This document shows, one piece after another, positions 49,017-64,000 of a stretch of DNA of 64,000 bases. The notes under the pieces are model-generated. The model saw nothing but the letters and a program-made list of their open reading frames with translations, did not search any database and was not told the origin of the DNA. Both the position numbers and the translations under genes were made by a program. This DNA is from a virus: positions 4,002 to 68,001 of the IMG/VR virus record IMGVR_UViG_3300021197_000245. One strand, written 5' to 3'. Position 1 is the first letter of the stretch. Every line of letters starts with the position of its first letter.

Positions 49017-49253
49017 TTACATGTCATCGTCAAAGTTAACAGCACCTGCTTCCATAAGCACGGGCTCCTCTTTTTTCTTCTCTGCTTTAGTTAGTGCATC
49101 TGCTACATCATCAATACAAAACCTATAAGTACTACCTACTTTTATGTAAGTGTCTTGTGGTATGTCTTGTTGACGAACCCATGCACGGATTGTTGATATG
49201 GAGACAGAGAAGTGTTTCGCCACATCTTCGATTGGTACGTATTTTCCAGTCAT
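49017..49253 (-). CDS. Excisionase/MerR-like HTH DNA-binding protein
   Basis: IEDVAKHFSVSISTIRAWVR..IP...KVG..YRF. Confidence 0.8.
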   Translation of the reverse strand: MTGKYVPIEDVAKHFSVSISTIRAWVRQQDIPQDTYIKVGSTYRFCIDDVADALTKAEKKKEEPVLMEAGAVNFDDDM

Positions 49254-51433: not shown

Positions 51434-52098
51434 TAGTTGCTCCCGTTATGTATGCACTCAAGCACAACACAATGTCTTTTACATAACCCACTTGGGTGGG
51501 CGTTCCAAACATTATTGCTATGTGCTACTTCCATGCGTGCATAATTATCTAACCATTTTTTCCATAATGCAGGGGTCATATCGTCTGTATAAGTTTGCTT
51601 TATAAAATTATTAGATACAACGAACAATAACCCTGCATTAATGGTTTTTATTTTAGGGAAATATTTGAAAGTAGCAAGTGCCATTAATTCTAATTGCCCT
51701 TTGTCTGCGTACTTGGCTGACTTGCTAGTCTTATAGTCTACTATCCATGCTTTCTCACCGTGGATGATTACAAGGTCAACTATGCCACGCCACCAAACTT
51801 GTTTTGACGTGAAGCTACACGGCTCCAGATCCTGTGTGAGTCCCATCTTCATCTCACAATGTTTCTCTCCATCCCTAGCTTTAAGAGCCTCAAGCACTGG
51901 TTTCATAAAATTAAATCTTTTAGGTATCGGCTTATCGCTACCGATAAACTCTTCAGCCACTAGGTGAGCCTCCGTACCATAACGCATAGCCTCAGTCTCG
52001 GATTCGACATAGTCCTTTGCTACCTTTAAATGGTAGAACTGTTTGGGACATTGCTCGAAAGACTTTATCCTACTAAATGACCAAGGCGATATGCTCAC
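51433..52098 (-). CDS. PD-(D/E)XK exonuclease (Cas4/RecB-like)
   Basis: WSFSRIKSFEQCP, GIVDL, IVDYKTS, QLELMA, C-terminal C..HC....C. Confidence 0.85.
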   Translation of the reverse strand: MSISPWSFSRIKSFEQCPKQFYHLKVAKDYVESETEAMRYGTEAHLVAEEFIGSDKPIPKRFNFMKPVLEALKARDGEKHCEMKMGLTQDLEPCSFTSKQVWWRGIVDLVIIHGEKAWIVDYKTSKSAKYADKGQLELMALATFKYFPKIKTINAGLLFVVSNNFIKQTYTDDMTPALWKKWLDNYARMEVAHSNNVWNAHPSGLCKRHCVVLECIHNGSN

Positions 52099-53924
52099 TC
52101 ACAATCTCCATAAGTTTTCCCCGTGCCCGATTCGCAATTTATAGGCAGACCATCTGCCCACTCGGGTGTCCAACGCATACATTCTTCTATATACTTCTGT
52201 GCATCTGTTACTTCTTCGTCCTTGACACAACACACTATCGAGTCATGCACAGTTAAAACGGCTCTATGCTTCTTGTTTATCTTTAGCATCTGTTCACCAA
52301 TTATGCAACGTGCTATAGCTTGGCAGACATTCTCCACAACCTTACCACCATATATGCGTGTTCGACCTCGTCTAGTTTGATAACTAAACTCTTCACCCAT
52401 CTCACCCGTCTCATAATCTAAATCTTCATATCGCATAAGTAATCCCGACGGCAAGCGTATAGCATTTTCTTCGGGTACAGTTATTAACACTTTGCCCCTG
52501 CCTAATCGCACGGGTAATTCGTTGTTACTTAACGAAACGAGAATCTGTTGTGCATCACGCCATAACTTGTTTATCTTCCAATTAGTTTCACGGTAAATTT
52601 TTATAACCCTCCGTGCTTCCTTTATGTCCATATCAAACCCAAACGTCTTTAGCTGTGATTGGAACTTCAAGGCTCCCATGCCATACCCAGCACCTAGTAT
52701 AGTAGTCTTACCAACAAATCTCTCGTCTTTTGTTATATCTTCCTCTGCCTTGTTATATATACGTGATGCCATCTTAACATACACATCTTCTCCATCAGCA
52801 AACGCTCTAGTCAGATCATCTTCACTAGCAAGCCAAGCCAAAACTCTAGCCTCTATTTGTGAGGAGTCGGCATCTATAAGAGTATGCCCTTCAGGTGCGA
52901 TAATACTACGTTTAAGTTTCTTACCATTGACACCTCTACTTGGTAGGTTTTGTAAATTTATCTTATCGTCTCCACCCCATCGCCCAGTGTGGGCTGCGTA
53001 ATACTTGACTGGGACGGGCAGGAGACCACGTTTAGCTATGTCTATAAATCTCTGCGTTCTTGTTTCTTCTAATGTAGATTTAGTTCCTAGCCTTGCAGTT
53101 ACCAACGCTTGCACTTTTGGATCGTGATGCGTTTCCAATGCTTTAAATTCTTCATCGGACTTGGCAAATGCAAAGGTCTCTTTACCAGTAGTAAGGCTTA
53201 TCTTCATGGGTGGATCGACACCAAGAGTTTTAAGGACTTCTGCAAACTTATGGTTACTCATCAAATCTTCTTTAGTCACGCCTGAAGAGATAAGCAGTTC
53301 GTCCTTACTGTCACGTGTTTCTATGAGATGATGCTCCAACATCCCCAAGTCAAGGTCTAAGATAGGGTTTATGAACATACGTAATGTTGCGTCTATAAGT
53401 TTAAACTCTTTCCTAGGAAATTTATTACCCATTATGGTAAATAACTTGTACGTCAAGTCTACGTCGTTAATACAATAGTCTCCGTAGTCTGCTAATTCAC
53501 TTTCCGTAAAGTCCTTTCGCCTCTTGCCGATCGCTTGTATGACCTCCGTGCCTTTTGCTCCGATATCATAATTTTCAGCCAATGCCTTGAGACTACTGCT
53601 ACTTTCCACCCCGTGAACACCACGGGAGATACACAAAGTATCGGTATACACCCTAGGACTAATATCAAAGATCCAATTAAGAATAGCACCGTCAAACATA
53701 GTATTGTGAGCAAGCACCATAGACTTCTCCCAATCGAATGTTTGTAAATATTGTTTAAGTTCTTCGTGTGTTCCACTTGCCCACTCCGTTTCCTGATTGT
53801 TAAGTTTGACTCCTATACCAATAACTTCAAACCTAGGGTCACGTATGTACTCCTCGGTTGTCAGCTTACTCAATGAAAACTCTTTACTATAAAAAGTCTC
53901 AAAGTCTAACGTAATTAAATCCAT
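52095..53924 (-). CDS. polA: DNA polymerase family A with 3'-5' exonuclease
   Basis: LDFET, AHN..FD and Y...DV exonuclease motifs; DADSSQIEARV (A), GKTTILGAGYG (B), TVHDS (C). Confidence 0.95.
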   Translation of the reverse strand: MDLITLDFETFYSKEFSLSKLTTEEYIRDPRFEVIGIGVKLNNQETEWASGTHEELKQYLQTFDWEKSMVLAHNTMFDGAILNWIFDISPRVYTDTLCISRGVHGVESSSSLKALAENYDIGAKGTEVIQAIGKRRKDFTESELADYGDYCINDVDLTYKLFTIMGNKFPRKEFKLIDATLRMFINPILDLDLGMLEHHLIETRDSKDELLISSGVTKEDLMSNHKFAEVLKTLGVDPPMKISLTTGKETFAFAKSDEEFKALETHHDPKVQALVTARLGTKSTLEETRTQRFIDIAKRGLLPVPVKYYAAHTGRWGGDDKINLQNLPSRGVNGKKLKRSIIAPEGHTLIDADSSQIEARVLAWLASEDDLTRAFADGEDVYVKMASRIYNKAEEDITKDERFVGKTTILGAGYGMGALKFQSQLKTFGFDMDIKEARRVIKIYRETNWKINKLWRDAQQILVSLSNNELPVRLGRGKVLITVPEENAIRLPSGLLMRYEDLDYETGEMGEEFSYQTRRGRTRIYGGKVVENVCQAIARCIIGEQMLKINKKHRAVLTVHDSIVCCVKDEEVTDAQKYIEECMRWTPEWADGLPINCESGTGKTYGDCE

Positions 53925-54358
53925 TAATCTTCCTCTGCCATAACACATTCATACTCGATACCGACGTAAGCCATGTTATCAACATAGTGATCTTTCTTCT
54001 TCGGACTTGTCATGCGTCTAGCTATCTTGGTGGACTCATGCACTAAAGCAATATCACGGGCAGATAAATCTCGACCCGTTATCGCATTAAATATGTTGGC
54101 TATGTGCTGATGATTTTTAACGGGGTCACCGTAATCTTTGCGTCTGTCTCCGTCAGTGAGGCTCACTGCTTCACGTAACAGATCGCTACGGTCCTGTTTG
54201 TTTAAATGCTTTATGATAACATCTTTTGGTGTGGCTATCTTATTTCTGATTTTTTGGGCATACGACTTAGATACCTTAGTGGCTTTACTTATTTGCGTGG
54301 ATGTAGCCAAGGGATTTTTTAGTAAGTACTTCTGCACCTTAACTTCTTTGTTAGTCAT
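53924..54358 (-). CDS. HTH plus DUF6378-like (nucleotide pyrophosphohydrolase-fold) protein
   Basis: N-terminal PLATSTQISKATKVSKSYA helix-turn-helix; GDRRKDYGDP..N...IA..KIAR..DHYVD..AY. Confidence 0.65.
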   Translation of the reverse strand: MTNKEVKVQKYLLKNPLATSTQISKATKVSKSYAQKIRNKIATPKDVIIKHLNKQDRSDLLREAVSLTDGDRRKDYGDPVKNHQHIANIFNAITGRDLSARDIALVHESTKIARRMTSPKKKDHYVDNMAYVGIEYECVMAEED

Positions 54359-54536
54359 CTTCTCTCCTCACATGATTTTCTGATCGTTCAAAATCTAATG
54401 GTAACTCTAACTGTTCTTCTTCTAAATTCGTGTTATCTATTGATAATTTACAAATCTTGCATATTGCGTACCCATCGGTAAAACATATGTATGCTTTACA
54501 TTTAGGACATAAATCATCTTTCCATCTTGTAGCCAT
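54351..54536 (-). CDS. Small Zn-ribbon protein
   Basis: CPKC...CKIC; AGGAGG RBS. Confidence 0.65.
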   Translation of the reverse strand: MATRWKDDLCPKCKAYICFTDGYAICKICKLSIDNTNLEEEQLELPLDFERSENHVRREDD

Positions 54537-54554
54537 AGTATCCTCCTATAAATT

Positions 54555-54703
54555 TGGTGCCCCCTTTTGCCGAGGGGGACTAGTAGTACGTACTTCTACG
54601 ACAAGGTCAAAGTTCTTTTTTGCAGTTGGAGACGAACCCCCCTTGTTGCAGTGGATATATGCCATGAATACACTAAGGAGTCTCTCACTGCTTAACCCCA
54701 CTG
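54555..54703 (-). ncRNA. Candidate structured RNA
   Basis: About 70-nt multi-helix hairpin (54622-54691) plus a CCCCCT/AGGGGG hairpin ending CACCA on the minus strand. Confidence 0.4.
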
Positions 54704-54993
54704 TAATAGTCATCAAAAATAGACTTCACACTATCTATATTTTCTTCGTTGATGACTACTGCAATTCCTTTTTGTTTCCTAATATCTGTTAAGTTCTTAT
54801 CTTGTAATGCCGTAGGCTTGTTGCCACCTGCTTTGCACTCGATACCAAAGAAGATACCTTTGTAGCATCCAACTATATCGGGCACACCACTAAAGCCATA
54901 ACCACCAGTCACGGGATAAAAGTAGTATGCTCCCATTTCTTTTAACTGTGCTACCACTTTCTTCTTAACCTTTGCCTCGGGTGTCATTACCAT
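54685..54993 (-). CDS. VRR-NUC nuclease (Holliday junction resolvase-like)
   Basis: TPEAKVK, GVPDIV, IECKA, PTALQ. Confidence 0.85.
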   Translation of the reverse strand: MVMTPEAKVKKKVVAQLKEMGAYYFYPVTGGYGFSGVPDIVGCYKGIFFGIECKAGGNKPTALQDKNLTDIRKQKGIAVVINEENIDSVKSIFDDYYSGVKQ

Positions 54994-55280
54994 TATGACT
55001 TATCCTTTTTATACTTAAACCTAAACCCTTGTGTTGCCGACCCATGCTTATGTGCATATGCACTGTTTGGTGAAATTAATTCCGACATTGGAGATGCACC
55101 ATTTGCTACTTCAGTGGGTCTTCTCACAACTCTACCATATTCTATTTCTTTCAATGCTACTGGACTATCCTCAAACCTCTCGTGCATATCTAACTCTTTA
55201 GGTGTCTTTTTTAAATTATCAAGCCTAATCTTTCTTTGTATGTCTCTTATACTTGATCTTACTCTACTGAATTTGTCCAT
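54993..55280 (-). CDS. Hypothetical protein
   Basis: GAGG RBS; packed ORF. Confidence 0.6.
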   Translation of the reverse strand: MDKFSRVRSSIRDIQRKIRLDNLKKTPKELDMHERFEDSPVALKEIEYGRVVRRPTEVANGASPMSELISPNSAYAHKHGSATQGFRFKYKKDKS

Positions 55281-55305
55281 AGTATCCTCTCAAAAAACTG
55301 GTTTC

Positions 55306-55374
55306 AACGGCAAGTAGTGGGGAGATTTAACCCCCCAATCTTGTAGTGACTCACTACAAAATCTACTTGCCGTT
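55306..55374. other. Three-way junction element containing a palindrome copy
   Basis: 12-bp perfect IR AACGGCAAGTAG/CTACTTGCCGTT enclosing a TGGGG/CCCCA hairpin and the 17-bp palindrome. Confidence 0.6.
55342..55358. repeat. 17-bp palindrome copy 1
   Basis: TGTAGTGACTCACTACA. Confidence 0.95.
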
Positions 55375-55617
55375 AATTACAAATCGGTTGTCGGCAATCC
55401 TAGTACCTATGTTATCAAGTGTCGCTTTAGTTTCAAGCATCATTAACAATGATAATCGTTCTTGAACCCATTTAGGACACTTATCCAAAGAACTATAACT
55501 GCCTTTTAGTACCGTGTCAACACATTCTATACCAAGACATGTAATTCTGACAAGTCCAGTATCATTTGATATGTTGACGTGGTACGACGTGTTAAGCTGT
55601 GTTGCCTCACTCATCAT
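55363..55617 (-). CDS. Hypothetical protein
   Basis: P.WVQERL..L..L..IG.R motif; overlaps the upstream gene. Confidence 0.65.
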   Translation of the reverse strand: MMSEATQLNTSYHVNISNDTGLVRITCLGIECVDTVLKGSYSSLDKCPKWVQERLSLLMMLETKATLDNIGTRIADNRFVINGK

Positions 55618-56530
55618 CAGGAGCTGTCACGTAAAACATTGTGGCATCAACACGATATCCTACGTCGTCAACCCAATGATTATTTTCTACCATACTAAGC
55701 ACAGACACCTTACCCATTACATCTTCGGGCACTTTGTCCTTGTCGTACGTGGTAAGGTTTCCTAGATCAGAACGACCATATCTCGCTTTATCTCGTATGA
55801 GAGGCACGACATCAAAGACTTGCTTACCATACTTCTCGTATACACGAACATAGTCTACATCAACACCGTCACTACTAACGGCATTAGCATCTTCTTCTAG
55901 CTTGAAGTAACTAAGCAGATCACTCTCCAACTCTTTGTCAGTAAACTCATGTCCTACCTTAACAAGTGTACGCATGTACTCGAGCATGGGGTTGTACTCG
56001 ATGTTCTTCTCCCTATTACTCTTAGCCAACAAATCAGACAGAGTGTTGTTTCTCTTAACATCCATTGCCGACTTTGTGTTCTTTGACTTGCGACGCATGT
56101 CTGCCTCTGTCCATTCGTCTAGTGCCATGTCCTTAGTCGTTAAGGGACGTAAGTATTTCTTGGCATTGCGAACGGCAGTAGAAAGATTGATAGACATAGC
56201 CATGTAATGTTGATCGTTATAGTCTGCATATTTGTAATTCGCAATATGCCTAGATGATATAACATAGCTACTTTGCATTGCCTTTGCCGTGGTCAAGAAA
56301 TCTCCATAGCCAATATAACCCATGACATAAGGATCGTTAGGCATGTGTACATAAACTCTCCTTTTATCATTAGCATCTTGTGTAAACAAGACACCACGAA
56401 ATGACTTACGTATCTCTGCCATAAACTCTTGTATATCCAAGTTAGAGGCTAGGTAATCCCTAGCCACTTTTTGTTGCTCAACATCAATCTTCTTATTGAT
56501 ATCGCTTACCTTTAATATATTATACGACAT
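55607..56530 (-). CDS. Hypothetical early protein
   Basis: 307 aa; C-terminal VP.DVMGKVSVL..VGYR resembles 55363-55617. Confidence 0.75.
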   Translation of the reverse strand: MSYNILKVSDINKKIDVEQQKVARDYLASNLDIQEFMAEIRKSFRGVLFTQDANDKRRVYVHMPNDPYVMGYIGYGDFLTTAKAMQSSYVISSRHIANYKYADYNDQHYMAMSINLSTAVRNAKKYLRPLTTKDMALDEWTEADMRRKSKNTKSAMDVKRNNTLSDLLAKSNREKNIEYNPMLEYMRTLVKVGHEFTDKELESDLLSYFKLEEDANAVSSDGVDVDYVRVYEKYGKQVFDVVPLIRDKARYGRSDLGNLTTYDKDKVPEDVMGKVSVLSMVENNHWVDDVGYRVDATMFYVTAPDDE

Positions 56531-56709
56531 TATTCATTCTCCCATTTCTTGATTTGTTCTAGTAGTTGTTCGGCATACTCATACCTACCGATGATAATGT
56601 CATCTGTACCATCGGTTACTTCTTCATCTCCGTCTATTATTGGTTGGCTACTAGAGATTTCTCCCTCTAGCATTTGCTTGATCTTATTGACCATTGGTTT
56701 GTATCGCAT
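56530..56709 (-). CDS. Small hypothetical protein
   Basis: Start moved to ATG 56709 (GGAGGAG RBS). Confidence 0.6.
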   Translation of the reverse strand: MRYKPMVNKIKQMLEGEISSSQPIIDGDEEVTDGTDDIIIGRYEYAEQLLEQIKKWENE

Positions 56710-57764
56710 TACTTCTCCTCCGTGTTGGTTAGTATCTGTGCCTTGATTGTCTTGTTGAACCCACATATCTTGTTGATCCAACGATTGTAATGTGCTCTGA
56801 ACTTCTTACGTTCTGACTCATGCTCGTCGAACAATACAGAGTCAAGCAACATATTCCATGCCATGTGCATACGCATTGGATGTTCCTCGTCTTCCATGAT
56901 GATAAGTGCCTGCTCGGGTTTTGGCTCGTACCCCCAAACGTGTTGGTTTTCTTTCACCCACCCTTGTTCTCGTGCATACTCAAGCAACTCTTCTCTCTTC
57001 AACTGGGCAAGATTGTGTTTGGCTTGGTATCTGTCTTGCGATACTGGATCGCCATAGCTATATTGAAAATTCTCAAGGTGTTCCCGAAACATAGGTGCCA
57101 TGACAAGTAACCAAGAATAGTATGAGTCCATAGCTGGCTTGAACTTCTTCTTACGTTCTTTGTCAACTAGCACACGTGGTGGAACAAACGTAAACGAGTT
57201 TGTACGTATCTTCCAACCCTCGCCTGGGACCCTCGTGAACTCAAGATACTTGCAATCATCTTTCTGCACAGTGGTCTTATCTCTATGCCAACCCCAAGAA
57301 TAGTAGTCACTCTTTGGCAGGAAGTATCGCACACCATTTAAGATGACGAACTGCTTGCCGTTGTCCACAACAAAATTTAACTCCCTTGGTAATGCTCGCT
57401 CCAAGAATGAGTATCTGCCATTGTGTGCACCACTGCCCGATCCATTACGTACACGCAGTGTCTCTGTGCCATCAATATTTAGTGTCCACATGATAGGTGC
57501 AAGTGCCTTGCAAGCCTCCATGGGTAAATCTTTTCCATGATAATGATGCTCACTGTATTGGATTGGGTCACCCATGTCGCCATCGTAGTAGGCATAGCAG
57601 TTATCTGAGAACTTGTGTATACGCTCATACTTACGACGTCTGTCGCCGAGTGGTCGTACATCATTCTCAAGTGTGTGTTGCTTACTGACGACTGGATTGA
57701 TACTGTTGTAGTGCGTGGCTACTGCACTGAAAATAGCTAGCCTTGGCATATCATATATTGACAT
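56709..57764 (-). CDS. Hypothetical early protein
   Basis: Start moved to ATG 57764 (AAGGAG RBS, palindrome just upstream). Confidence 0.75.
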   Translation of the reverse strand: MSIYDMPRLAIFSAVATHYNSINPVVSKQHTLENDVRPLGDRRRKYERIHKFSDNCYAYYDGDMGDPIQYSEHHYHGKDLPMEACKALAPIMWTLNIDGTETLRVRNGSGSGAHNGRYSFLERALPRELNFVVDNGKQFVILNGVRYFLPKSDYYSWGWHRDKTTVQKDDCKYLEFTRVPGEGWKIRTNSFTFVPPRVLVDKERKKKFKPAMDSYYSWLLVMAPMFREHLENFQYSYGDPVSQDRYQAKHNLAQLKREELLEYAREQGWVKENQHVWGYEPKPEQALIIMEDEEHPMRMHMAWNMLLDSVLFDEHESERKKFRAHYNRWINKICGFNKTIKAQILTNTEEK

Positions 57765-58311
57765 GTTTAGTCTCCTTTGTTTTTTGTAGTGTCTCACTAC
57801 AGTTTTGGTTGTTGTAATAGTCTTGTCTTGTCGTGTTACATGTGAGGTCATCTGTTAACTCCCACACCATGCGAACACCGACTTCTTGTTCTAGGTTCTC
57901 TACCATCATCTGACTTAGATATGATTCGCTCCCATAACATTCTTCTTCGGTGTCGTCATGTTCTTCGCCACCACGCACAAATCTGTATGCGTAAGTGAAA
58001 TTTTCTCGCTCGTTGGCAAACTGCTTACACACTGTAGCTATGTGTAAGTACGCTTGTATGTCTTTATACTCGTTGTAAAACTTCCAACCAAAGTAATCGA
58101 GACGCATGATAAAACACGTCGTGTCACTATCCAATGCCCAATCGTGGAATGTCCAGTTGCCGTCGTTGTCAACCAAGTCATCGTCGAGGTTTGTCTGAAA
58201 TGGATTGAGTTCTTGCACACGTGGGTCTAGCCGATATACGGCTAGTACCTCTTTCATGTCTTGCAATGTCTCGAACGCAACGACTATGATGCCGTCTGAT
58301 CTATACCCCAT
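57751..58311 (-). CDS. Hypothetical early protein
   Basis: MGYRSD..KFY..F.R.GEE..D.EE motif; start moved to ATG 58311. Confidence 0.7.
   Translation of the reverse strand: MGYRSDGIIVVAFETLQDMKEVLAVYRLDPRVQELNPFQTNLDDDLVDNDGNWTFHDWALDSDTTCFIMRLDYFGWKFYNEYKDIQAYLHIATVCKQFANERENFTYAYRFVRGGEEHDDTEEECYGSESYLSQMMVENLEQEVGVRMVWELTDDLTCNTTRQDYYNNQNCSETLQKTKETKHVNI
57785..57801. repeat. 17-bp palindrome copy 2 (variant)
   Basis: TGTAGTG-TCT-CACTACA; 7-bp arms intact, centre changed. Confidence 0.9.
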
Positions 58312-58483
58312 TGTCTTCTCTCCACCATAGGATAAGCTGTTGCTGTGCGTGTTCCTTTGCCATGTCGCCCAGTTCCTGCTTGATCTTCTTGAGTGCTTGA
58401 CCATTGGTCATACCCTCGTTGGTTAATAGATGATGCAGTAACTCCTCTGCATCGGTGAGTATGTTCTTTATTCTATGTGACAT
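58301..58483 (-). CDS. Small hypothetical protein
   Basis: AGGAGG RBS; packed ORF. Confidence 0.6.
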   Translation of the reverse strand: MSHRIKNILTDAEELLHHLLTNEGMTNGQALKKIKQELGDMAKEHAQQQLILWWREDNGV

Positions 58484-58766
58484 TTGTACCTCCTTTATAA
58501 TATATCACTTGAAACTTATGTAGTGTATGTAACTCCTCTTCCGTCACATTCATTACGTCTTCCACCCAAACAACTTTGTCGCCATACCAAAAATCGCTTT
58601 GGTCTTCATTCTCATGCTCTGCAAAATTGTAATCGTGAAACTCGGATAGTATCGTCAAGTCTGTGATTTTATCTTCATCATAGTCTTGTTTTGTAAAGGT
58701 TTCATAGTAACCCCACATCTCATACTCATCCTCGCCAGTACTAGTTTTTAATCTATATAAAATCAT
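58473..58766 (-). CDS. Acidic hypothetical protein
   Basis: GGGAG RBS; abuts the VWA gene. Confidence 0.65.
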   Translation of the reverse strand: MILYRLKTSTGEDEYEMWGYYETFTKQDYDEDKITDLTILSEFHDYNFAEHENEDQSDFWYGDKVVWVEDVMNVTEEELHTLHKFQVIYYKGGTNVT

Positions 58767-60002
58767 TTATAACTCCCTTGATTTTACGTGAACGTGTGTG
58801 CCTACGTCGGGCACAGTTCCCTCATTGTCGATGATACACCACAAGATCGGACATGCCCACTTGCCCCAACTGCCACCTAGATAGCCGTCGGTCAATACGA
58901 TACATGCTTGAGGTTTGACACCCTCCTTGGTCATGTACTCGGGAACACACTCAATCATTGTGCCACCACCACCTTTTGGTTTGGTTGACTTGACCAAGTC
59001 ATCGAGCTCGTGCAACTCATACTTCTCGTCACCACACACTTCTGTGTCCCAATACAGTATACGTACTTTCTCGGGGTGGACTGTGTCGCATATCTCTTTG
59101 ACTTCTGTAAGAAACCTAGACAGTTCGGGTTGACCGATCGAGCCACTCGTGTCGATAGCAATGACCAACTCGCCAATGCTCTCGGATATCCCACTCGGCA
59201 TATACACACCTGCCGATATGTACCGTCTGTTAGGACGTTGCCACGTGGAGTAATCACTGCCAGTACATGTAGTGACAACGAACTCCCTCAACACTTCTCG
59301 CCAGTCAATCTGTGGTTTGAGCAGATCGACCAAGTCACGATCGCCACCCGAACCAGTCTTGCCAGCAATCAACGCACCTTGACGTATCGCCTCGTCAATG
59401 TCTCGAGCCAAGTCATTCTGTTCTTGTGGGGACAACTCTTTTGCCCCATCCCAGTCATGTTGGTCAAACGATCCTTGTAGTGAGTCACTACCACTTTCGC
59501 CATCGATACCAGTGCCGTTGCCTTGAGTTGGCTGATCTTCGCCACTCTCCTTGCGAGCATGATAGACTTGAGCCGTGTCCATGCCACGATACTTCTCGTC
59601 GAAACAACCATTGGTAAGTTCCCCAGTCATAGTAGCAAAGCCGTCCTTGTTGTCATCACGTAGCTTGACGTTGATAACATAGTCCATGCAGATGTTAGCC
59701 TCATCGGGATTGATGTCGGCTATCCATTTCCACGTGGTAAGATGTTTGTACAACTTGTGATAACTCTCGTGCAGTATGAGAAACCGTAACTCTGCATCGT
59801 TTAGCTTAGATACAAACTCACGGTTGTACATCTCGTCCTTGCCATTGGTACAAGCCGTTGGTATCGAGGGATCATCAATCACAGTACGATCCCCCAGCAT
59901 AAGTATGCCAGCGAGTGCGACATACTTTGGGTTTTGCATAATTGAGATGACGGCTTTCTGCACACGTTGCTCTGCCGTCAACTGTTCACTTGTCATAAAC
60001 AT
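58767..60002 (-). CDS. Metallopeptidase-like plus VWA domain protein (DUF2201-type)
   Basis: TACTNG, ILHESYH (HExxH), MIDAS IDTSGS, GGGGT, LTDGY; start moved to ATG 60002. Confidence 0.85.
   Translation of the reverse strand: MFMTSEQLTAEQRVQKAVISIMQNPKYVALAGILMLGDRTVIDDPSIPTACTNGKDEMYNREFVSKLNDAELRFLILHESYHKLYKHLTTWKWIADINPDEANICMDYVINVKLRDDNKDGFATMTGELTNGCFDEKYRGMDTAQVYHARKESGEDQPTQGNGTGIDGESGSDSLQGSFDQHDWDGAKELSPQEQNDLARDIDEAIRQGALIAGKTGSGGDRDLVDLLKPQIDWREVLREFVVTTCTGSDYSTWQRPNRRYISAGVYMPSGISESIGELVIAIDTSGSIGQPELSRFLTEVKEICDTVHPEKVRILYWDTEVCGDEKYELHELDDLVKSTKPKGGGGTMIECVPEYMTKEGVKPQACIVLTDGYLGGSWGKWACPILWCIIDNEGTVPDVGTHVHVKSREL
59476..59492. repeat. 17-bp palindrome copy 3 (one mismatch, inside the VWA gene linker)
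   Basis: TGTAGTGAGTCACTACC. Confidence 0.9.
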
Positions 60003-60015
60003 AGTCTTTCCTTTC

Positions 60016-60032
60016 TGTAGTGAGTCACTACA
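60016..60032. repeat. 17-bp palindrome copy 4
   Basis: TGTAGTGAGTCACTACA between the AAA+ and VWA genes. Confidence 0.95.
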
Positions 60033-60039
60033 ATAGTTG

Positions 60040-61137
60040 TTACTTTTTGTCTGATGCAAAAAGATAGTTGTTGTCCATCGCCCACTTAGTGAACTTCTTG
60101 TTGGTCATGACCATAGACTGCTTGGCATACTTGGGATTACGTACACCATTGGCGAACATACCTTGTGCCTCTTTGTCTAGTCGCACCATGTAGTCCATCC
60201 AAGCATCGATCCAGTCTTTCTCCAAAGTTGCTAGTGTACGATACACAACCATACACGTGGCTGATGCAGACGTAGGCACCTTGGCGTTCTTTGGGTCTTT
60301 CTTGATACTCTCGAGTGATGGTAGCTGATCGGCAAGTTTGACAAATGCCATCAAGTCCATAGCACCTCGCTCGCCTATCGTACCCATGAGCATAGATGTC
60401 AACGTCGTATCATCTAGCTTGTCACGTTGCTCTAGCCATATACTACATGCCTCAAGAGAACGTGGTGTCACGAAAGATGCTCGTTGTTGCTTGGGATGAA
60501 AGATGTACGGATTGTCATCAGGATTTTTTACATCCTCGAACGAATAGAACAACTGTGGGTTTTCTTTACACCAACCAAGTAATGTCTGATCGATACCCTT
60601 GTTGATCGCCCATGATATCCACTCCATGTTGGTTGGTTTCTTCATCACACTCATGACAATACGATTACGTGCATGTGGTGGTATGAGATCGCCAACTCCC
60701 TCTGCTCCAAGATTGGTTGTAGCAAACACGATACTGTCTTTGTGCAACGTGTAGTTACCAATCTTACGCTCGAGCATAAGTCGTAGCATAGCGTTCTTGA
60801 CCGACGGATTAGACTTGCCATACTCGTCAATCATAAGAATGATCGGCTTGTCGAGATGGACACCAAGTTCTTCGTTGGTCAGATACGACACAAACCCCGT
60901 GCCGTCATCTAGCTTGGCAATGTTCGGTATTGTGATATCGCCCAAGTCTTTAGTCGTGCAGTCAAAGTAGCATGCAGTATGTGTCGGTAACTCGCTAGCA
61001 AGTGTGGACAAGATCGATGACTTGCCCGTGCCCATGTGTCCTTGAACGAGGACTGTTCGTAAGTGACCACCAGTCTTGATCGCATTAACTGTTTGGTCGA
61101 TTGATAGTGAGTACATTTGTATTGCTTGATTAGTCAT
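60040..61137 (-). CDS. MoxR-like AAA+ ATPase
   Basis: GHMGTGKS, LMIDEYGK, ATTN, ARNR, TPRSLE. Confidence 0.85.
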   Translation of the reverse strand: MTNQAIQMYSLSIDQTVNAIKTGGHLRTVLVQGHMGTGKSSILSTLASELPTHTACYFDCTTKDLGDITIPNIAKLDDGTGFVSYLTNEELGVHLDKPIILMIDEYGKSNPSVKNAMLRLMLERKIGNYTLHKDSIVFATTNLGAEGVGDLIPPHARNRIVMSVMKKPTNMEWISWAINKGIDQTLLGWCKENPQLFYSFEDVKNPDDNPYIFHPKQQRASFVTPRSLEACSIWLEQRDKLDDTTLTSMLMGTIGERGAMDLMAFVKLADQLPSLESIKKDPKNAKVPTSASATCMVVYRTLATLEKDWIDAWMDYMVRLDKEAQGMFANGVRNPKYAKQSMVMTNKKFTKWAMDNNYLFASDKK

Positions 61138-61160
61138 GGCATAAGCCTCCTTTTAAGTTT

Positions 61161-61177
61161 TGTAGTGAGTCACTACA
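61161..61177. repeat. 17-bp palindrome copy 5
   Basis: TGTAGTGAGTCACTACA upstream of the AAA+ RBS. Confidence 0.95.
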
Positions 61178-61182
61178 GTTTG

Positions 61183-62091
61183 TTATATATCTAATGATGG
61201 TAACGACTTGATAACTTCGTCAACAGACTTCTTAGTCTCTGCACGTAGGAACTCGTCCTCACGTAGTGCATCGGGTGTAACACCTTGAAGTGTGTCTTCG
61301 AGTTTCATTCGCATAGCCTCCATCTGACTGTCGTTGGTAATATTGCAGACTGATAGTAAGTCAACAATGTCCAACACATTCGTAACAAGTGTGTCACGAA
61401 ATACTTTCTTGCTCTCGTGGCTTGCATAGTCCAACCGTTCGGACATGTTAGACAAGCACTTGAAAGCACGTTGCCATATGTCGTTCATGGCATTGTTTAG
61501 CTGTGTCGTGTAGTACGTTTCGTAATGGCTCTTCATCTCGGTCTGTGCCTCGGTGTTGATGTCCAACCGAAAGTCACCAGCCTCGGGTAGTGGCATGTAT
61601 GACAATCTGAAACCGAACTTACTTGATAGGCTCTCGGTAGTCGGATAGTCATTACGATTGAACAGATCGCCTAGCTTAGCTTGTGCTTGTGTGATCTCCC
61701 AATCATATGCTTGCAAGAACGTGTTAACACAATCGTCGAACGATGCTTGGATCTCGGTCATGGTCTCGTGATACTTGAAGTATGCTTTTGTTGTAAGCAA
61801 ACGTAATCCAGTATCTGACCAAGGCATTGTCATGCCGTAGTGTGTGGTACGAGCAACACCGACTAGTGTGTCGATAGCTTTGAGTTCTGCACAATCGGCA
61901 AGTAATTTCTTGTGGACATTTGCGACACCAGTTTTTGCATAGTTTGCAGATGCAACGTCTGCCGATGCTCGCTTGTCTAGTTTACGTCCAGTCCATTTTG
62001 ATATGCCTAATTCGACTAGTGTTGCCGAACTGGATATTGATGGTGTAGAAATTTGTAGTGAGTCACTACAGTTTTTGTTTAGTGTAGTCAT
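61183..62091 (-). CDS. DUF3150-like protein
   Basis: LVELGISKWTGRK.D..V.KKLL..T.PW..G.RLL..DYP..L..KF pattern; first gene of the AAA+/VWA trio. Confidence 0.65.
   Translation of the reverse strand: MTTLNKNCSDSLQISTPSISSSATLVELGISKWTGRKLDKRASADVASANYAKTGVANVHKKLLADCAELKAIDTLVGVARTTHYGMTMPWSDTGLRLLTTKAYFKYHETMTEIQASFDDCVNTFLQAYDWEITQAQAKLGDLFNRNDYPTTESLSSKFGFRLSYMPLPEAGDFRLDINTEAQTEMKSHYETYYTTQLNNAMNDIWQRAFKCLSNMSERLDYASHESKKVFRDTLVTNVLDIVDLLSVCNITNDSQMEAMRMKLEDTLQGVTPDALREDEFLRAETKKSVDEVIKSLPSLDI
62054..62070. repeat. 17-bp palindrome copy 6 (codons 8-13 of the DUF3150-like gene)
   Basis: TGTAGTGAGTCACTACA, read as CSDSLQ. Confidence 0.95.
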
Positions 62092-62103
62092 GGTTAGTCT
62101 CCC

Positions 62104-62301
62104 TTATTTGTAGTATTGATTGTTGATTGTTGTTGTCGCTTTTACGTTAGGTGTGTCGGGCATGTTGTGCTTTACGTAACGATGTCCGTGTATAGTGAAG
62201 ACTTCCACAAACGCATTGCCTCGCCACTCCCAGTTTGATGTAGTGCCTTTAGGTAGTCGCTTGTAGAACTTCTTGATCTTAGAACGCTTTCTCATAGTCA
62301 T
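62104..62301 (-). CDS. Small basic early protein
   Basis: Start moved to ATG 62301 (AAGGAG RBS), downstream of a strong promoter. Confidence 0.6.
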   Translation of the reverse strand: MTMRKRSKIKKFYKRLPKGTTSNWEWRGNAFVEVFTIHGHRYVKHNMPDTPNVKATTTINNQYYK

Positions 62302-62320
62302 GGTGTAGTCTCCTTTGTTT

Positions 62321-62337
62321 TGTAGTGAGTCACTACA
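62321..62337. repeat. 17-bp palindrome copy 7
   Basis: TGTAGTGAGTCACTACA in the 5' leader of the early operon. Confidence 0.95.
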
Positions 62338-62394
62338 GTATTGTTGAGGCAAGATTGCCAATCGAAAATCTTTGTCTTTCTCGATTATGTGTAT

Positions 62395-62423
62395 ATAGTA
62401 CCACAACTATCGGGAAGTGTCAA
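62395..62423 (-). promoter_or_regulatory. Strong sigma70 early promoter
   Basis: Minus strand TTGACA-17 nt-TACTAT with extended TGn. Confidence 0.8.
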
Positions 62424-62522
62424 GCCGTACGATAACACGTTAGATTACGTTATAGAGTGTGATACAGTGGTATATGATGTAATGTACTGTAATGTTCTGT
62501 AATGTTCTGTTGTGGGTGTGCG

Positions 62523-62535
62523 TAAGTCCTTGATT
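62523..62535 (-). promoter_or_regulatory. IHF consensus site
   Basis: AATCAAGGACTTA matches WATCAANNNNTTR. Confidence 0.45.
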
Positions 62536-62714
62536 ATATTGGAATGTTCTTTTGTTCTTTTTTTTAGGGAATTGGACACCTGCCTCGAGACGCTCACGAT
62601 CGAAAGAACATTTGAAATTATTTCATAAGTAGACTAAGTAAAAAAAAGAAAAACGAACATTACATACTAAAACTAAGATTTACTAAGATTTACTAAGTTC
62701 TACTAGGCAAGTTT

Positions 62715-62731
62715 TGTAGTGACTCACTACA
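62715..62731. repeat. 17-bp palindrome copy 8
   Basis: TGTAGTGACTCACTACA. Confidence 0.95.
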
Positions 62732-62832
62732 GTTTACCATTGCTTACCACTGTAGCATAATGTACGTTTTACACTTTCAAAAAACGAACATTGCAGGAAC
62801 ATTCGCAGAACATTATAAATAAAAAACGAACA

Positions 62833-62958
62833 TTAGGCTCAACGCTACATTAAGAACTGGTTTCATAGGTGTAGTGAGTCACTACAAAAACACAGGAGAA
62901 CAAGTTATAATTCAATGTGTGGTATCACGTTAGGCTCAACGCTACATTAAGAACTGGT
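62833..62958. repeat. 29-bp direct repeat pair
   Basis: TTAGGCTCAACGCTACATTAAGAACTGGT at 62833-62861 and 62930-62958. Confidence 0.9.
62870..62886. repeat. 17-bp palindrome copy 9
   Basis: TGTAGTGAGTCACTACA between the 29-bp direct repeats. Confidence 0.95.
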
Positions 62959-62969
62959 ATCTTAGGCAC

Positions 62970-62992
62970 AAAAAAAGGGAGCCGAAGCTCCC
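62970..62992 (-). terminator. Rho-independent terminator
   Basis: Minus strand GGGAGC-TTCG-GCTCCC-TTTTTTT (UUCG tetraloop). Confidence 0.85.
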
Positions 62993-62997
62993 TGATA

Positions 62998-63168
62998 TTA
63001 AAATGATATTAAAGAAATAAAAGCATATAAGAATAATATAACACCGCCAAGGTATGCAAATATATATGCGAATATAGTATGCCAAGGTGTTCTAAAATCA
63101 TAAACTTTATAACGTTTTATTTTAGGTCTTTTATTTTGTCTTGTAGGTATGTCTTTTAATTGTTTCAT
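62998..63168 (-). CDS. 56-aa membrane peptide
   Basis: GGAG RBS; MKQLKDIPTRQNKRPKIKRY...IFAYLGGVILFLYAFISLISF translated by hand; followed by a terminator. Confidence 0.6.
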   Translation of the reverse strand: MKQLKDIPTRQNKRPKIKRYKVYDFRTPWHTIFAYIFAYLGGVILFLYAFISLISF

Positions 63169-63180
63169 AATTCAAACTCC

Positions 63181-63213
63181 AAAAAAATGGGGCAACGTAA
63201 TTGATGCCCCATT
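63181..63213 (-). terminator. Rho-independent terminator
   Basis: AATGGGGCA/TGCCCCATT stem with a T tract on the minus strand after 63222-63818. Confidence 0.65.
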
Positions 63214-63221
63214 GTAACGTG

Positions 63222-63818
63222 TTAATGTTTAATTGAAACGTTTGTTTCAACAACCTTGTTGATCTGTCCTAGTAGGACAATAACCTTATCAATATCTAAG
63301 GTAGCATCTTCCATGCCTTTTAACTTAGCTATTAACTTGTTATTGTTATAAACAAGAGACTGTCTAAAAGTCTTCTTCTCTTGTTTACCATTGCTACCTG
63401 ATAGCATGTTAGCACGATTGATTAACTGCTTTTTATAGTCAGATAATCGACCTGAAACATTCCTATTAAGGACTGCTTTCATAGTCTTTTGACTTTCAGT
63501 CAATGACTTAGCACCACGTGTTAACGTGTAAGCATACCTTGGATCTAATCCTTTAGCTATGCTTACCTTGAAAGCCATGAAGCTTTCCGCAGGCATGTTA
63601 TTGACGAATGAGTTATCATTCTTTTTAACCTCGCCAATACCAATAACCTCACCTTTAGTATTAGGTGAAACCATGTTAAACCATTGAAAGCCCTCGGCTA
63701 TCAACATATCAACAGTCTTAGCTGTTGAACGAGTAGACTTAGCTAATACTGAGTTATCAGATATTAACTGCTTTTCAAGTTTTTCAGATACTTGCAAACT
63801 GTTTTTCAATGTAGGCAT
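63222..63818 (-). CDS. Basic hypothetical early protein (198 aa)
   Basis: GGAG RBS, own promoter and terminator. Confidence 0.75.
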   Translation of the reverse strand: MPTLKNSLQVSEKLEKQLISDNSVLAKSTRSTAKTVDMLIAEGFQWFNMVSPNTKGEVIGIGEVKKNDNSFVNNMPAESFMAFKVSIAKGLDPRYAYTLTRGAKSLTESQKTMKAVLNRNVSGRLSDYKKQLINRANMLSGSNGKQEKKTFRQSLVYNNNKLIAKLKGMEDATLDIDKVIVLLGQINKVVETNVSIKH

Positions 63819-63868
63819 TTAGCCATCTCCATTAAAACACAAAAAGCTTGATTGCTTTTGATAGGCTC

Positions 63869-63877
63869 ATTATATCA
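63869..63877 (-). promoter_or_regulatory. Extended -10 promoter
   Basis: Minus strand TGA-TATAAT about 50 nt upstream of ATG 63818. Confidence 0.45.
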
Positions 63878-63925
63878 ATATATCTAGTCATTGTATGGTC
63901 TGTTCTACAATTATATAATAAAAAC

Positions 63926-63942
63926 TGTAGTGACTCACTACA
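63926..63942. repeat. 17-bp palindrome copy 10
   Basis: AAAAC-TGTAGTGACTCACTACA-AAAA, flanks inverted relative to copies 5-7. Confidence 0.95.
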
Positions 63943-64000
63943 AAAACCTATAAAACAATATAAACTACAACATTAAATCACTATATATCAGACCCTAGCG

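Follow-up and report, generated by a model that had tools for sequence, protein, structure and literature searches.

A dispersed palindrome in the early region of an uncultured marine phage: a candidate operator array for the early protein p200

Why would one short palindrome be repeated ten times within the early region of a phage, and which molecule would read it? The question is raised by the 17-base palindrome TGTAGTGA(S)TCACTACA in the DNA of an uncultured marine phage (record of 68,001 bp). The window, the whole stretch of 64,000 bases analysed here, corresponds to positions 4002-68001 of that record and holds 10 copies, all within 55342-63942.

The palindrome copies and the early transcription units

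The window was scanned with the pattern TGTAGTGASTCACTACA, allowing up to two mismatches. Every one of the ten coordinates listed in an earlier sequence-only reading was reproduced, and its report that the first 55 kb are free of copies was borne out by the scan of the entire 68,001-base record, in which no further copies were found outside 55342-63942 and a backwards control pattern gave 0 matches. Eight copies are exact and two carry one mismatch each (centre TCT at 57785, last base C at 59476). The chance expectation is 0.01 copies, and none of 100 shuffles gave 10. The array sits within 8.7 kb of one contig end, the record being classed in IMG/VR as 'linear, no end repeats'. The conserved flank TTT-core-GTTT described earlier is present in about 6-7 of the ten copies and does not hold as a rule for all; in relatives the flanks are the outward continuation of the palindrome (T-G...C-A). 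The copies are as follows, with no strand assigned.

Copy 1, 55342-55358: exact, centre C on the plus strand; intergenic, at the end of the early block
Copy 2, 57785-57801: centre variant TCT; 20 nt upstream of the 57764 start, in the 3' end of gene 57751-58404 (CSETLQ)
Copy 3, 59476-59492: one mismatch (last base C); within the DUF2201/VWA gene (GSDSLQ)
Copy 4, 60016-60032: intergenic; 8 nt past the ATPase stop and 13 nt before the 60002 start
Copy 5, 61161-61177: intergenic; 23 nt ahead of the ATPase start at 61137
Copy 6, 62054-62070: codons 8-13 of the DUF3150 gene (CSDSLQ)
Copy 7, 62321-62337: 19 nt ahead of the 62301 start
Copy 8, 62715-62731: non-coding control region
Copy 9, 62870-62886: non-coding control region
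Copy 10, 63926-63942: upstream of the p200 gene

At four minus-strand starts (57764, 60002, 61137 and 62301) a copy precedes the start by 13-23 nt, as had been noticed before, and a GGAG-type ribosome-binding site immediately follows each of these copies. The reading of three copies as the in-gene peptides CSDSLQ (62054), GSDSLQ (59476) and CSETLQ (57785) was confirmed as well. The copy at 57785 falls within the end of gene 57751-58404 and at the same time precedes the 57764 start, and was thus counted twice in that reading; the non-coding copies, given there as three, are in fact four (55342, 62715, 62870 and 63926). On the gene strand, copy 9 is directly followed by a conserved repeat, ACCAGTT...GCG.TGAGCC. 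The early genes and their putative signals are listed below.

63869-63877, minus strand: extended -10 promoter-like element TGATATAAT ahead of p200; a consensus match only, putative
63222-63818, minus strand: p200 gene, 198-aa basic early protein; candidate palindrome-binding homodimer
63181-63210, minus strand: terminator-like hairpin GGGGCA...TGCCCC followed by T7 (seven T), between p200 and the gene for a 56-aa membrane protein
62998-63168, minus strand: gene for the 56-aa basic protein, with a hydrophobic helix at its C-terminus
62976-62993, minus strand: intrinsic-terminator-like site closing the p200 transcription unit
62395-62423, minus strand: sigma-70-type promoter-like site in front of the main early operon (TTGACA-17-TACTAT with TG); 10 of 12 matches
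55363-62301, minus strand: array-bearing early operon encoding a 65-aa protein, DUF3150, an AAA+ ATPase, a DUF2201 peptidase/VWA protein and then seven family-less proteins

Host-type promoter-like sites thus precede both early units. The centre of copy 10 is located about 72 nt upstream of the predicted p200 transcription start, and copy 7 would fall in the 5' leader, at about +59 from the predicted promoter at 62395-62423, near which one RNA-library contig ends (62383), a weak hint only. No integrase or other lysogeny gene was detected among the genes scanned, and the phage looks lytic.

Palindrome types and the p200 gene in related phages

A dispersed palindrome array, taken as a palindrome family with at least three copies, was detected in the same early region of 76 of the 80 related IMG/VR loci. 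The motif scan of the contig and its relatives that had been proposed thus found an array that is regional here and relatives that hold arrays of their own type in the same region. The window's palindrome sequence is common to only two of the 80 loci, L005 and L007, the remaining loci carrying lineage-specific forms of (T)G-TTAG/GTAG...CTAA/CTAC-C(A). An own-type palindrome precedes the ATPase start by no more than 70 nt in 54 of 79 relatives, occupies the DUF3150 N-terminus at the copy-6 position in 57 of 70, follows the ATPase stop at the copy-4 site in 29 of 80, and stands no further than 230 nt before the p200 gene in 23 of the 24 inspected. The peptide encoded by the DUF3150-internal palindrome varies between lineages, and a GTTAGTG-type palindrome occupies the copy-3 site (59476) in a strain from a public run. 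The centres also differ: the L037 palindrome TTAGGGAATTCCCTAA is perfect through the centre in all 9 of its copies, the centres of GTTAGTG-NNN-CACTAAC palindromes are free, and the L063 and L077 lineages keep only the outer GTTAG...CTAAC at fixed spacing around a centre that is not self-complementary. Mixed-type arrays are present in L005 and L076. In complete relatives the arrays occupy only 8-13 kb of about 60 kb, and the proposed regulon would be confined to the early region.

Three independent near-isogenic pairs carry different palindromes, L007/L008 (89-93% nucleotide identity), L079/L084 (91-97%) and L072/L076 (95-98%). The replacement of the palindromes is clean, with flanks identical to within 2-4 nt, and the sole non-homologous block in each pair is the p200 gene of about 200 aa, taking in an adjacent small ORF in L007/L008. 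These comparisons span 11-17 kb of genomes of about 60 kb and therefore leave room for a second determinant elsewhere, for example a virion protein. Among the 18 window genes within 52095-63818, p200 alone has a match (74%) in the relative that shares the palindrome but none in the relative with a different one. For 79 locus pairs with ATPase nucleotide identity of at least 85%, and with a p200 cut-off of 60% identity, palindrome and p200 were both shared in 58 and both different in 16, while a different palindrome with a similar p200 was never found (0 of 79). The remaining 5 pairs, with the same palindrome and p200 below 60%, count against p200 as the reader.

The sequence-only reading had named three candidate binding proteins. 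Its basic protein at 63222-63818, p200, is now favoured, since no other gene changes along with the palindrome type in all three pairs and a symmetric homodimer is predicted for it. The HTH protein at 49017-49253 does not track the palindrome (94% identical in a different-palindrome relative). The third, at 53924-54358, is a Pfam DUF6378 protein rather than the HTH protein it was taken for, and lies in a collinear stretch; the protein is about equally similar in a same- and a different-palindrome relative (76-78% over 91 aa).

The p200 protein is all-helical and basic (pI 9.87; family median 9.41) and was found in 46 of the 47 loci with sufficient upstream sequence. No consistent Pfam or PHROG family and no recognisable DNA-binding domain was detected; Foldseek gave nothing against PDB and BFVD with a cut-off of E <= 0.001, and the highest VIA Z, 6.7, was restricted to a C-terminal helical hairpin. 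The homodimer was predicted with an ipSAE of 0.82, compared with 0.00 for the best of three controls, and the runs had at least 89% of contacts in common with a partner pLDDT of at least 77. This mark was reached by 20 of 30 proteins with structures solved as two copies of one chain and by 1 of 23 with structures solved as single chains, a calibration that is only rough here because the p200 alignment was self-made.

A short motif of p200 follows the half-site sequence. In the window it reads LNRNVSGR (residues 117-124) and is located at the N-terminal end of a long helix (108-140), mostly outside the predicted dimer interface. QQQ[ILV]GA[RK] pairs with the half-site GTTAGTG, QQ.IGS[RK] with GTTAGGG or GTTAGTCC, and N[RKN][QN][PV][AS][SG]R with [GT]GTAGT. 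As a raw count, the presence of QQQ[ILV]GA[RK] agrees with the GTTAGTG type in 43 of 45 sequences; when relatedness is allowed for, the link is not significant (3 independent pairs on supported branches, sign test p = 0.5).

Based on the co-swap and the predicted dimer, we propose with middling confidence that p200, an early protein of the phage itself, binds the palindromes as a homodimer and that they serve as operator-like sites on duplex DNA. The operator array was one of three options raised in the sequence-only reading, which had deduced selection acting on the nucleic acid, and is the best supported of them, its reading by p200 itself being what we infer from these two lines of evidence. 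Duplex DNA would be the target, since palindromes that are perfect through the centre and the lineages with 5-bp outer arms (L063 and L077) fit it better than a hairpin. The probable effect would be repression, which we assume over activation from the positions of the sites alone.

Alternative readings of the palindromes

The palindrome could instead act as a hairpin in RNA or single-stranded DNA, with a 7-bp stem and a 3-nt loop in leaders or between cistrons, stabilising, processing or gating the translation of early messages, either alone or with p200 as an RNA-binding protein. We consider this unlikely, although several observations suit it. Folding of the hairpin yields about -7 kcal/mol and does not occlude the ribosome-binding site. 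In relatives, 148 of 453 copies lie within 45 nt upstream of a ribosome-binding site and start on the gene strand, compared with 10 of 453 on the other strand and 356 of 3300 random positions. The last copy (copy 1) is one arm of a large three-way structure at 55270-55375, the minus-strand fold of 106 nt around it having -42.5 kcal/mol and z = -6.6, and the same arrangement is kept in L007 and L008 with each lineage's own palindrome. RNA-library contigs bridge the copies at 57785, 59476, 60016 and 62321, these being low-depth contigs with possible DNA carry-over. Against these stands the use of one stem sequence throughout each genome with free loops, the reverse of most RNA-hairpin readers. 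The centre cannot pair as a hairpin in perfect-through-centre palindromes and spacer-less 16-mers, nor are the centres complementary in L063 and L077, and changes in one arm go uncompensated, for example in copy 3 (59476) and the GGTAGTG copies from L005 and L007. Moreover, the four non-coding copies of the window lie away from start codons, and an Rfam search gave no match. That copy 2 changes only the loop had been offered in favour of a hairpin; the argument does not separate the two readings, a dimer on duplex DNA leaving the centre free as well.

Quite improbable, in our view, is that the palindromes and the p200 swap are unrelated, the former being linkers for recombination or small mobile palindromic elements that gene conversion keeps uniform, comparable to the promoter-early stem-loop cassettes of T4 or bacterial REP elements. 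The fast-evolving p200 could then be a hypervariable first-entry gene, for example of anti-defence, merely co-varying with the palindrome. The cassette-like replacement, the exchange between palindrome types seen in the mixed arrays, the differing early-gene content between palindromes among relatives, and the strong divergence of p200 even inside one palindrome type all agree with such a view. It fits poorly with the coincidence of all three independent palindrome switches with a p200 swap, the empty class of close pairs, the p200 motif that follows the half-site, and the near-constant presence of p200 behind a palindrome; the genes that were scanned yielded no transposase or HUH nuclease.

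Promoters for a phage-borne RNA polymerase, either the ejected virion polymerase of N4 or a T7-type enzyme, are very improbable. The early promoters of N4, about three sites, form hairpins with a 7-bp stem and a 3-nt loop. The window palindrome shares this geometry as an inverted repeat before early genes near one putative genome end, and the ATPase and VWA genes of the array-bearing operon are distant relatives of N4 gp24/gp25. As in the T7 group, a phage-specific conserved element of about 17 bp precedes genes, and the sense-strand palindrome contains the 9-mer GACTCACTA, positions -11 to -3 of 14 annotated T7 promoters. Two giant virion-type proteins (1737 and 2391 aa) are explained only in part. 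Unlike N4, however, there are about ten sites with uniform stems and free centres, and T7 promoters are non-palindromic and need a T7-type polymerase, none of which was detected in this genome. Pfam RNA_pol (PF00940) gave nothing at E <= 1 in this genome and four complete relatives, whereas it detected T7 RNA polymerase (E = 1e-109), N4 RNAPII (E = 1e-14) and, with a weak E of 0.007, the virion polymerase of N4. In the 2391-aa protein, the first 1550 aa are similar to polyvalent-protein clusters and the C-terminus to DarB; the early proteins of 351 and 307 aa matched no solved polymerase by profile search. In addition, a fully symmetric core would fire both ways, the ribosome-binding site begins 1-3 nt past the palindrome in some relatives, and host-type promoter-like sites already stand where needed.

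Least probable, and highly so, is the earlier suggestion of sites on first-entering DNA for an ejected virion protein or DNA-entry ratchet: the nearness of the contig end, the giant DarB-like protein gene adjoining structural genes, and the annotation of its Pseudomonas phage KPP25 relative as a structural protein of the virion would suit it, but related contigs run through that end, which makes the physical genome end only putative, nothing ties the giant polyvalent protein to palindrome type, and the gene swapped with the palindrome is an early and not a virion gene.

Known systems and the proposed mode of regulation

The proposed control of many operons by p200 through repeated sites resembles that by P1 C1 and by KorA/KorB of IncP plasmids, in which one regulator acts on many operons through repeated operators. 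Dimers read the KorA/KorB operators, which are short palindromes whose arms resemble TTTAGC...GCTAAA. These are circuits of plasmid or prophage maintenance with known HTH or ParB folds, and no homology of p200 to them was found in Pfam, PHROG and PDB searches.

The stoperators of Cluster A mycobacteriophages, in the portions of the reports drawn on here, are 13-bp asymmetric, transcription-oriented sites, 20-30 genome-wide, read by the L5 gp71-type immunity repressor, a monomeric two-domain repressor of temperate phages that blocks elongation upon binding (PMC6550527, PMC9283540). As far as these portions go, both systems have many copies of a short site across transcription units, mostly off promoters, and the sites vary between related phages, tracking the cognate repressor there and the candidate p200 here. 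In contrast, the present sites are palindromes of 16-19 bp limited to an early block of 8-13 kb, and the protein proposed to read them is predicted to be a homodimer and belongs to an unrelated family without a known fold. The lytic phages T1 and Stevie carry dispersed, mainly intergenic repeats of 22 bp that their authors likened to stoperators; unlike the present sites, these are asymmetric and point in one direction, and the part of the report drawn on here proposes no cognate protein (PMC4319613).

For p200 as the reader, the following order of events may be proposed. Host RNA polymerase would initiate at the sigma-70-type promoters, and p200, encoded by the first gene of the early arm, would be made first. 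Its dimer would then fill the ten or so two-fold symmetric sites: one by the p200 promoter, several across the non-coding control region, one in the main early operon's leader, further ones immediately before the ribosome-binding sites of a number of early genes or within two genes, and one at the terminator-like structure ending the early block. Most probably, early transcription would be damped or blocked as a result, by self-regulation together with a roadblock in the manner of a stoperator. The p200 protein and its sites would thus form a matched set, the specificity of which changes fast between otherwise near-identical phages.

Palindrome array of the early region

A scan of the window with TGTAGTGASTCACTACA, in which up to two mismatches were allowed, detected 10 occurrences, eight exact and two with one mismatch, against a shuffle expectation of 0.01 for this pattern. 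All ten coordinates listed in the sequence-only reading were recovered, and the whole 68,001-base record, which is rated complete and of which the window covers bases 4002-68001, contains the same ten copies and none additional, confined to 55342-63942, or 8.6 kb of 68 kb. As that reading also stated, four copies are located 13-23 nt 5' of start codons, but its counts of three intragenic and three non-coding copies are corrected here to two purely intragenic and four non-coding; the copy at 57785 is within the 3' end of one gene and also ahead of the following gene. Within one genome the arm sequence is common to all copies and the centre is free. The centre base is inverted between homologous sites of the window and of the related locus L007, and the seemingly oriented flanks (T before, A after) are palindromic too. 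The genes and predicted sites are as follows.

63222-63818, minus strand: p200, 198-aa protein, first gene of the early arm
After p200, minus strand: membrane-type protein, 56 aa
Between the 56-aa gene and the main early operon: non-coding DNA, ~640 bp
Early operon, minus strand: 65-aa protein, DUF3150, AAA+ ATPase, DUF2201 peptidase/VWA and seven proteins without known family
Past the last copy (55342), replication genes: DUF6378, PolA, PD-(D/E)XK exonuclease, SNF2 helicase, T7 gp2.5-like SSB and DUF927 primase
45 kb of plus-strand genes: packaging, head, tail-spike and giant internal-type proteins
38067-45242 and 29239-34452, plus strand: giant proteins of 2391 aa and 1737 aa, after the tail genes
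62423-62395: sigma-70-type site TTGACA-17-TACTAT with TG, ahead of the main operon (consensus match only)
63877-63869: extended -10 TGATATAAT, ahead of p200 (consensus match only)

The replication-gene block beyond 55342 contains no palindrome copy. The early operon opens with the trio of DUF3150, MoxR-like AAA+ ATPase and DUF2201 peptidase/VWA (58767-62091), of which the ATPase is ~25% identical to N4 gp24-like proteins of Litunavirus.

For comparison, 313 IMG/VR stretches were retrieved with the ATPase, and 80 loci were retained. The palindrome sequence of the window is present in only two of these (L005 and L007), while in 76 of the 80 a palindrome family particular to the locus occurs in three or more copies, the copy number being 5-11 in most relatives. 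The sites across lineages are palindromes of 16-19 bp, including GTTAGTG-NNN-CACTAAC (the commonest type), GTTAGTC..., TTAGGGAATTCCCTAA, TTACGGAATTCCGTAA, GGTAGTCC-NN-GGACTACC, GGTAGTAC-NN-GTACTACC, TTATAGCATGCTATAA and GTTAGGCG-N-CGCCTAAC. Of 79 loci, 54 have a palindrome of the lineage's own type no more than 70 nt upstream of the ATPase start. Such a palindrome was also found in the N-terminal coding region of DUF3150 in 57 of 70 loci, directly past the ATPase stop in 29 of 80, and ahead of the p200 gene in 23 of the 24 relatives inspected. In complete relatives the arrays are limited to 8-13 kb of ~60 kb. A ribosome-binding site and start codon followed within 45 nt downstream on the gene strand for 148 of the relatives' 453 copies, compared with 356 of 3300 random positions and 10 of 453 on the opposite strand. 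Since the positions are conserved while the sequence is lineage-specific, the element is under selection as nucleic acid, in agreement with the earlier proposal. Public RNA runs, which consist of low-depth contigs whose uncovered parts carry no information, include strains in which sites of the window (loose ends at 59459/59477 and 62966) are occupied by other palindrome types.

Two loci carry mixed arrays. In L005, copies of the window type are located upstream of ~7100 and copies of the GTTAGTC type from 7963 onwards; in L076, five own-type (GGTAGTCC) copies are accompanied by one GTTAGTG-type copy before the ATPase gene, a gene that shares 98.9% identity with its counterpart in the GTTAGTG-type locus L072. 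L005 and L076 may be recombinants or chimeric contigs.

Two further elements share the control region. Two direct repeats of ~40 nt (62830-62869 and 62927-62966; gene strand GA(A/T)ACCAGTT-N10-GCG-N-TGAGCC) are present in the window, and a repeat of the ACCAGTT...TGAGCC type follows the control-region palindrome in most relatives, often in 2-3 copies. These repeats look iteron-like and may represent a replication origin or the site of a second conserved protein. The word AATGTTC/GAACATT occurs in about ten copies, in both orientations, at 62478-62840, and also in the control regions of relatives with every palindrome type; being common to all types, it points to a conserved reader. Ahead of the palindrome and the p200 gene, most relatives carry a G-rich motif with four G-runs (GGGG..ATGGGGGTGGGGTGGGG-like), for instance at ~5060-5100 of L007. 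This motif is absent from the 68-kb record, which ends where it should begin (window end, 64000), and that end could be either an assembly break or the genome end.

Co-variation of palindrome type with p200

Three pairs of near-identical loci carry different palindromes, L007/L008 (89-93% nucleotide identity), L079/L084 (91-97%) and L072/L076 (95-98%), the comparisons spanning 11-17 kb of ~60-kb genomes. In each pair the sole block that fails to align is the p200 gene, the block in L007/L008 also taking in the adjacent small ORF. In the L079/L084 alignment the palindromes are swapped cleanly, with flanks identical to within 2-4 nt. Point mutation could hardly achieve such a clean exchange at all sites of genomes that are 94-98% identical.

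The 18 window genes at 52095-63818 were then compared one by one with L007 (same palindrome) and L008 (different palindrome), and p200 alone had a match in the former (74%) and none in the latter. The one other gene that differed somewhat encodes the 65-aa protein (82% in L007 versus 59% in L008), which is missing from many lineages (8 matches in the ORF set) and is thus ruled out as the general reader. Among 79 locus pairs with at least 85% nucleotide identity in the ATPase gene, taking 60% as the cut-off of p200 similarity, 58 shared both palindrome and p200 (at or above the cut-off), 16 differed in both, five shared the palindrome with p200 below the cut-off, and none combined different palindromes with p200 at or above it. 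At the sequence level, the association of site sequence with p200 as the candidate reader is strong. The p200 protein evolves fast even inside one palindrome type. On its tree each non-GTTAGTG type occupies its own long branch, and the palindrome labels require 11 changes, against a mean of 18.6 for shuffled labels (0 of 200 shuffles as low). The presence or absence of p200 offers no contrast, its profile matching in 46 of the 47 loci with enough upstream sequence.

Three proteins had been put forward as readers from sequence alone. The basic protein at 63222-63818, p200, is swapped with the palindrome type and is retained; the other two do not track the type, the HTH_17 protein at 49017-49253 being 94% identical in a genome with a different palindrome, and the protein at 53924-54358, which is DUF6378, lying in collinear sequence.

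The p200 protein has a pI of 9.87 (family median, 9.41), and 41 of the 45 family sequences are linked by BLAST. Its AlphaFold2 model, built from a 38-sequence alignment, is all-helical (pLDDT 82.4, pTM 0.60). Pfam and PHROGs gave nothing consistent on 38 family members, and the p200 profile detected no relative among PDB sequences and 50 matches among 5.8 billion proteins, all nameless marine proteins without Pfam domain. With the model, Foldseek found no match in PDB and BFVD at E <= 0.001, and a wide VIA search only helical-hairpin matches (best Z 6.7), weak or absent matches that do not show a new fold, fold searches being silent on DNA-binding function. A literature search returned the stoperator papers and nothing on this phage group or the p200 family.

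Prediction with two copies of p200 gave a median ipSAE of 0.82 over three runs, and the best of three controls scored 0.00. Among proteins of solved structure, 20 of 30 that are pairs of one chain attained this mark, as did one of 23 that are single chains; the calibration holds only roughly here because the alignment was our own. The runs shared at least 89% of contacts, with a partner pLDDT of at least 77, and the predicted interface is symmetric (residues 6-48, 74-92 and 151-194). The modelling thus predicts p200 as a symmetric homodimer.

A motif that tracks the half-site is located at the start of the long helix 108-140, largely outside the predicted dimer interface. QQQ[ILV]GA[RK] pairs with GTTAGTG, QQ.IGS[RK] with GTTAGGG or GTTAGTCC, and N[RKN][QN][PV][AS][SG]R with [GT]GTAGT in two separate parts of the tree. 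The presence or absence of the first motif agreed with GTTAGTG versus other types in 43 of 45 sequences as a raw count; the phylogenetically independent sign test gave p = 0.5, having no power with only three independent pairs on supported branches.

Duplex DNA, RNA hairpin or promoter

The palindrome might alternatively act as an RNA hairpin. As RNA it would fold with ~-7 kcal/mol and leave the ribosome-binding site free, and the last copy forms one arm of a three-way structure that is kept in relatives with their own palindrome. Against the hairpin, the stems are uniform inside one genome while the loops are free, and changes in a single arm are not compensated; in some palindromes the symmetry is unbroken across the centre, as for TTAGGGAATTCCCTAA in nine of nine copies of locus L037, and the lineages of L063 and L077 keep only the outer GTTAG...CTAAC at fixed spacing, with centres that are not self-complementary. 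The palindromic flanks and the flipping centre base, together with the predicted symmetric dimer, favour duplex DNA as the target, although they do not amount to proof. A role as antisense terminator was rejected, the T-run after the hairpin not being kept in relatives.

The three-way structure itself (55270-55375, minus strand; -42.5 kcal/mol, z = -6.6) has a 9-bp inverted repeat on the outside, which encloses the last palindrome together with a GC hairpin. It is followed by AAACCAGTTTTTT and lies where the early genes give way to the replication genes. Rfam gave no match at E <= 1 in 55000-64000.

Phage-type promoters were also considered. In the N4 type, early genes are preceded by promoter hairpins whose stem is 5-7 bp and whose loop is 3 nt. 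This geometry is seen in the window, but not in lineages with spacerless 16-mers or with 5-bp outer arms only; N4 encodes a giant virion RNA polymerase of the T7-like family, whereas none was found here with PF00940. This Pfam profile (RNA_pol), which a very divergent polymerase could escape, had no match at E <= 1 in this genome or four complete relatives, while the positive controls were matched (T7 RNA polymerase, N4 RNAPII and, weakly, the N4 virion polymerase in its 3512-aa frame). The sense-strand palindrome (62321-62337 and other copies) contains the 9-mer GACTCACTA, which 14 annotated T7 promoters have at positions -11 to -3, a likeness that is treated as coincidence because a polymerase was not found and the element is symmetric: promoters of the T7 group are served by a cognate single-subunit RNA polymerase gene and share a conserved element of 23 bp that is not palindromic and has the start site at the 3' edge, whereas here only the 9-mer is common.

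Of the two giant proteins, the 2391-aa one is of the polyvalent type, with LPD39 and a DarB/PLxRFG-like C-terminus, and its first 1550 aa fall among polyvalent-protein clusters in the ESM Atlas; the 1737-aa one has no PHROG family and only nameless clusters as ESM Atlas neighbours. Profiles of the 351-aa and 307-aa early proteins found nothing among PDB sequences. Host-type (sigma-70) consensus matches are positioned as transcription would require, ahead of the main operon and of p200. One RNA-library contig ends at 62383, near the start predicted for the main operon, which is at most a hint since contigs do not show transcript ends.

Comparison with stoperators and proposed mode of control

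According to PMC6550527 and PMC9283540, a repressor bound at stoperators inside transcription units blocks elongation, and the stoperator sites and the repressor diverge together between phages. The array described here resembles the stoperators of Cluster A mycobacteriophages in two respects: one short site is dispersed in many copies within transcription units, and its sequence co-varies with its reader (the cognate repressor there, the candidate p200 here). Cluster A stoperators are genome-wide, whereas the window's sites are confined to the early block and, unlike stoperators, the sites here are palindromes of 16-19 bp. The Cluster A repressor is a monomeric HTH protein of the gp71 family, in contrast to p200, a predicted homodimer for which Pfam, PHROG and PDB gave no consistent match. 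Among the genes that were scanned, none for lysogeny was seen. On this analysis the system would work like a stoperator network, the nearest working model because most sites are not at promoters, without belonging to that family, since its sites are palindromic and early-confined, its reader is predicted as a dimer of an unplaced family, and no lysogeny gene was seen.

A comparison with 50,697 phage records gave no near-DNA match to the region. Even the closest relatives in culture are distant, PolA being 35% identical to that of Rhizobium phage RHph_TM3_14A and 34% to that of Pseudomonas phage KPP25. No palindrome array was found in KPP25; RHph_TM3_14A (MN988472) carries 31 TTACC-N4-7-GGTAA sites across its first 50 kb, many at gene borders. 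Neither phage was an informative comparison, the p200 profile detecting no homologue in the first 50 kb of either.

In the proposed mode of control, host polymerase would make p200 early, and the p200 dimer would then settle on the palindromes, which are found close to the p200 promoter, in the control region, in the main-operon leader, within early genes as well as between them, and at the structure that closes the block. Judged from site position, binding would repress rather than activate. An activator site at fixed promoter distance was rejected, the palindrome at the p200 promoter being located in the leader in L079 and upstream of -35 in L084. Frequent recombination between co-circulating types would homogenise the coding DNA, while selection would keep the sites matched to their reader; the mixed arrays of L005 and L076 fit this scheme of recombination plus matching.

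A bolder reading, which we consider rather improbable, is that p200 and its palindromes form a self-identity system of lytic marine phages and that p200 is also the founder of a new dimeric sequence-specific DNA-binding fold. The start of its long helix would read the half-site, and an orthogonal, fast-switching pair of reader and site would reserve early-gene control for a single lineage, so that close relatives infecting the same cell would not use one another's regulator or be affected by it (kin discrimination or exclusion), recombination homogenising all except the matched sites and the reader gene.

Dispersed regulator sites are already known in temperate mycobacteriophages. Here, near-isogenic natural phages point to one gene as the candidate reader, and the pair of a 198-aa protein and a 17-bp site is testable, with non-cognate controls ready in the relatives. 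If the proposal is true, it would give a function to an abundant marine phage protein family without assigned role, provide a source of orthogonal protein-operator pairs, and be a clear example of a regulator co-evolving in concert with about ten sites, in genomes that are 94-98% identical.
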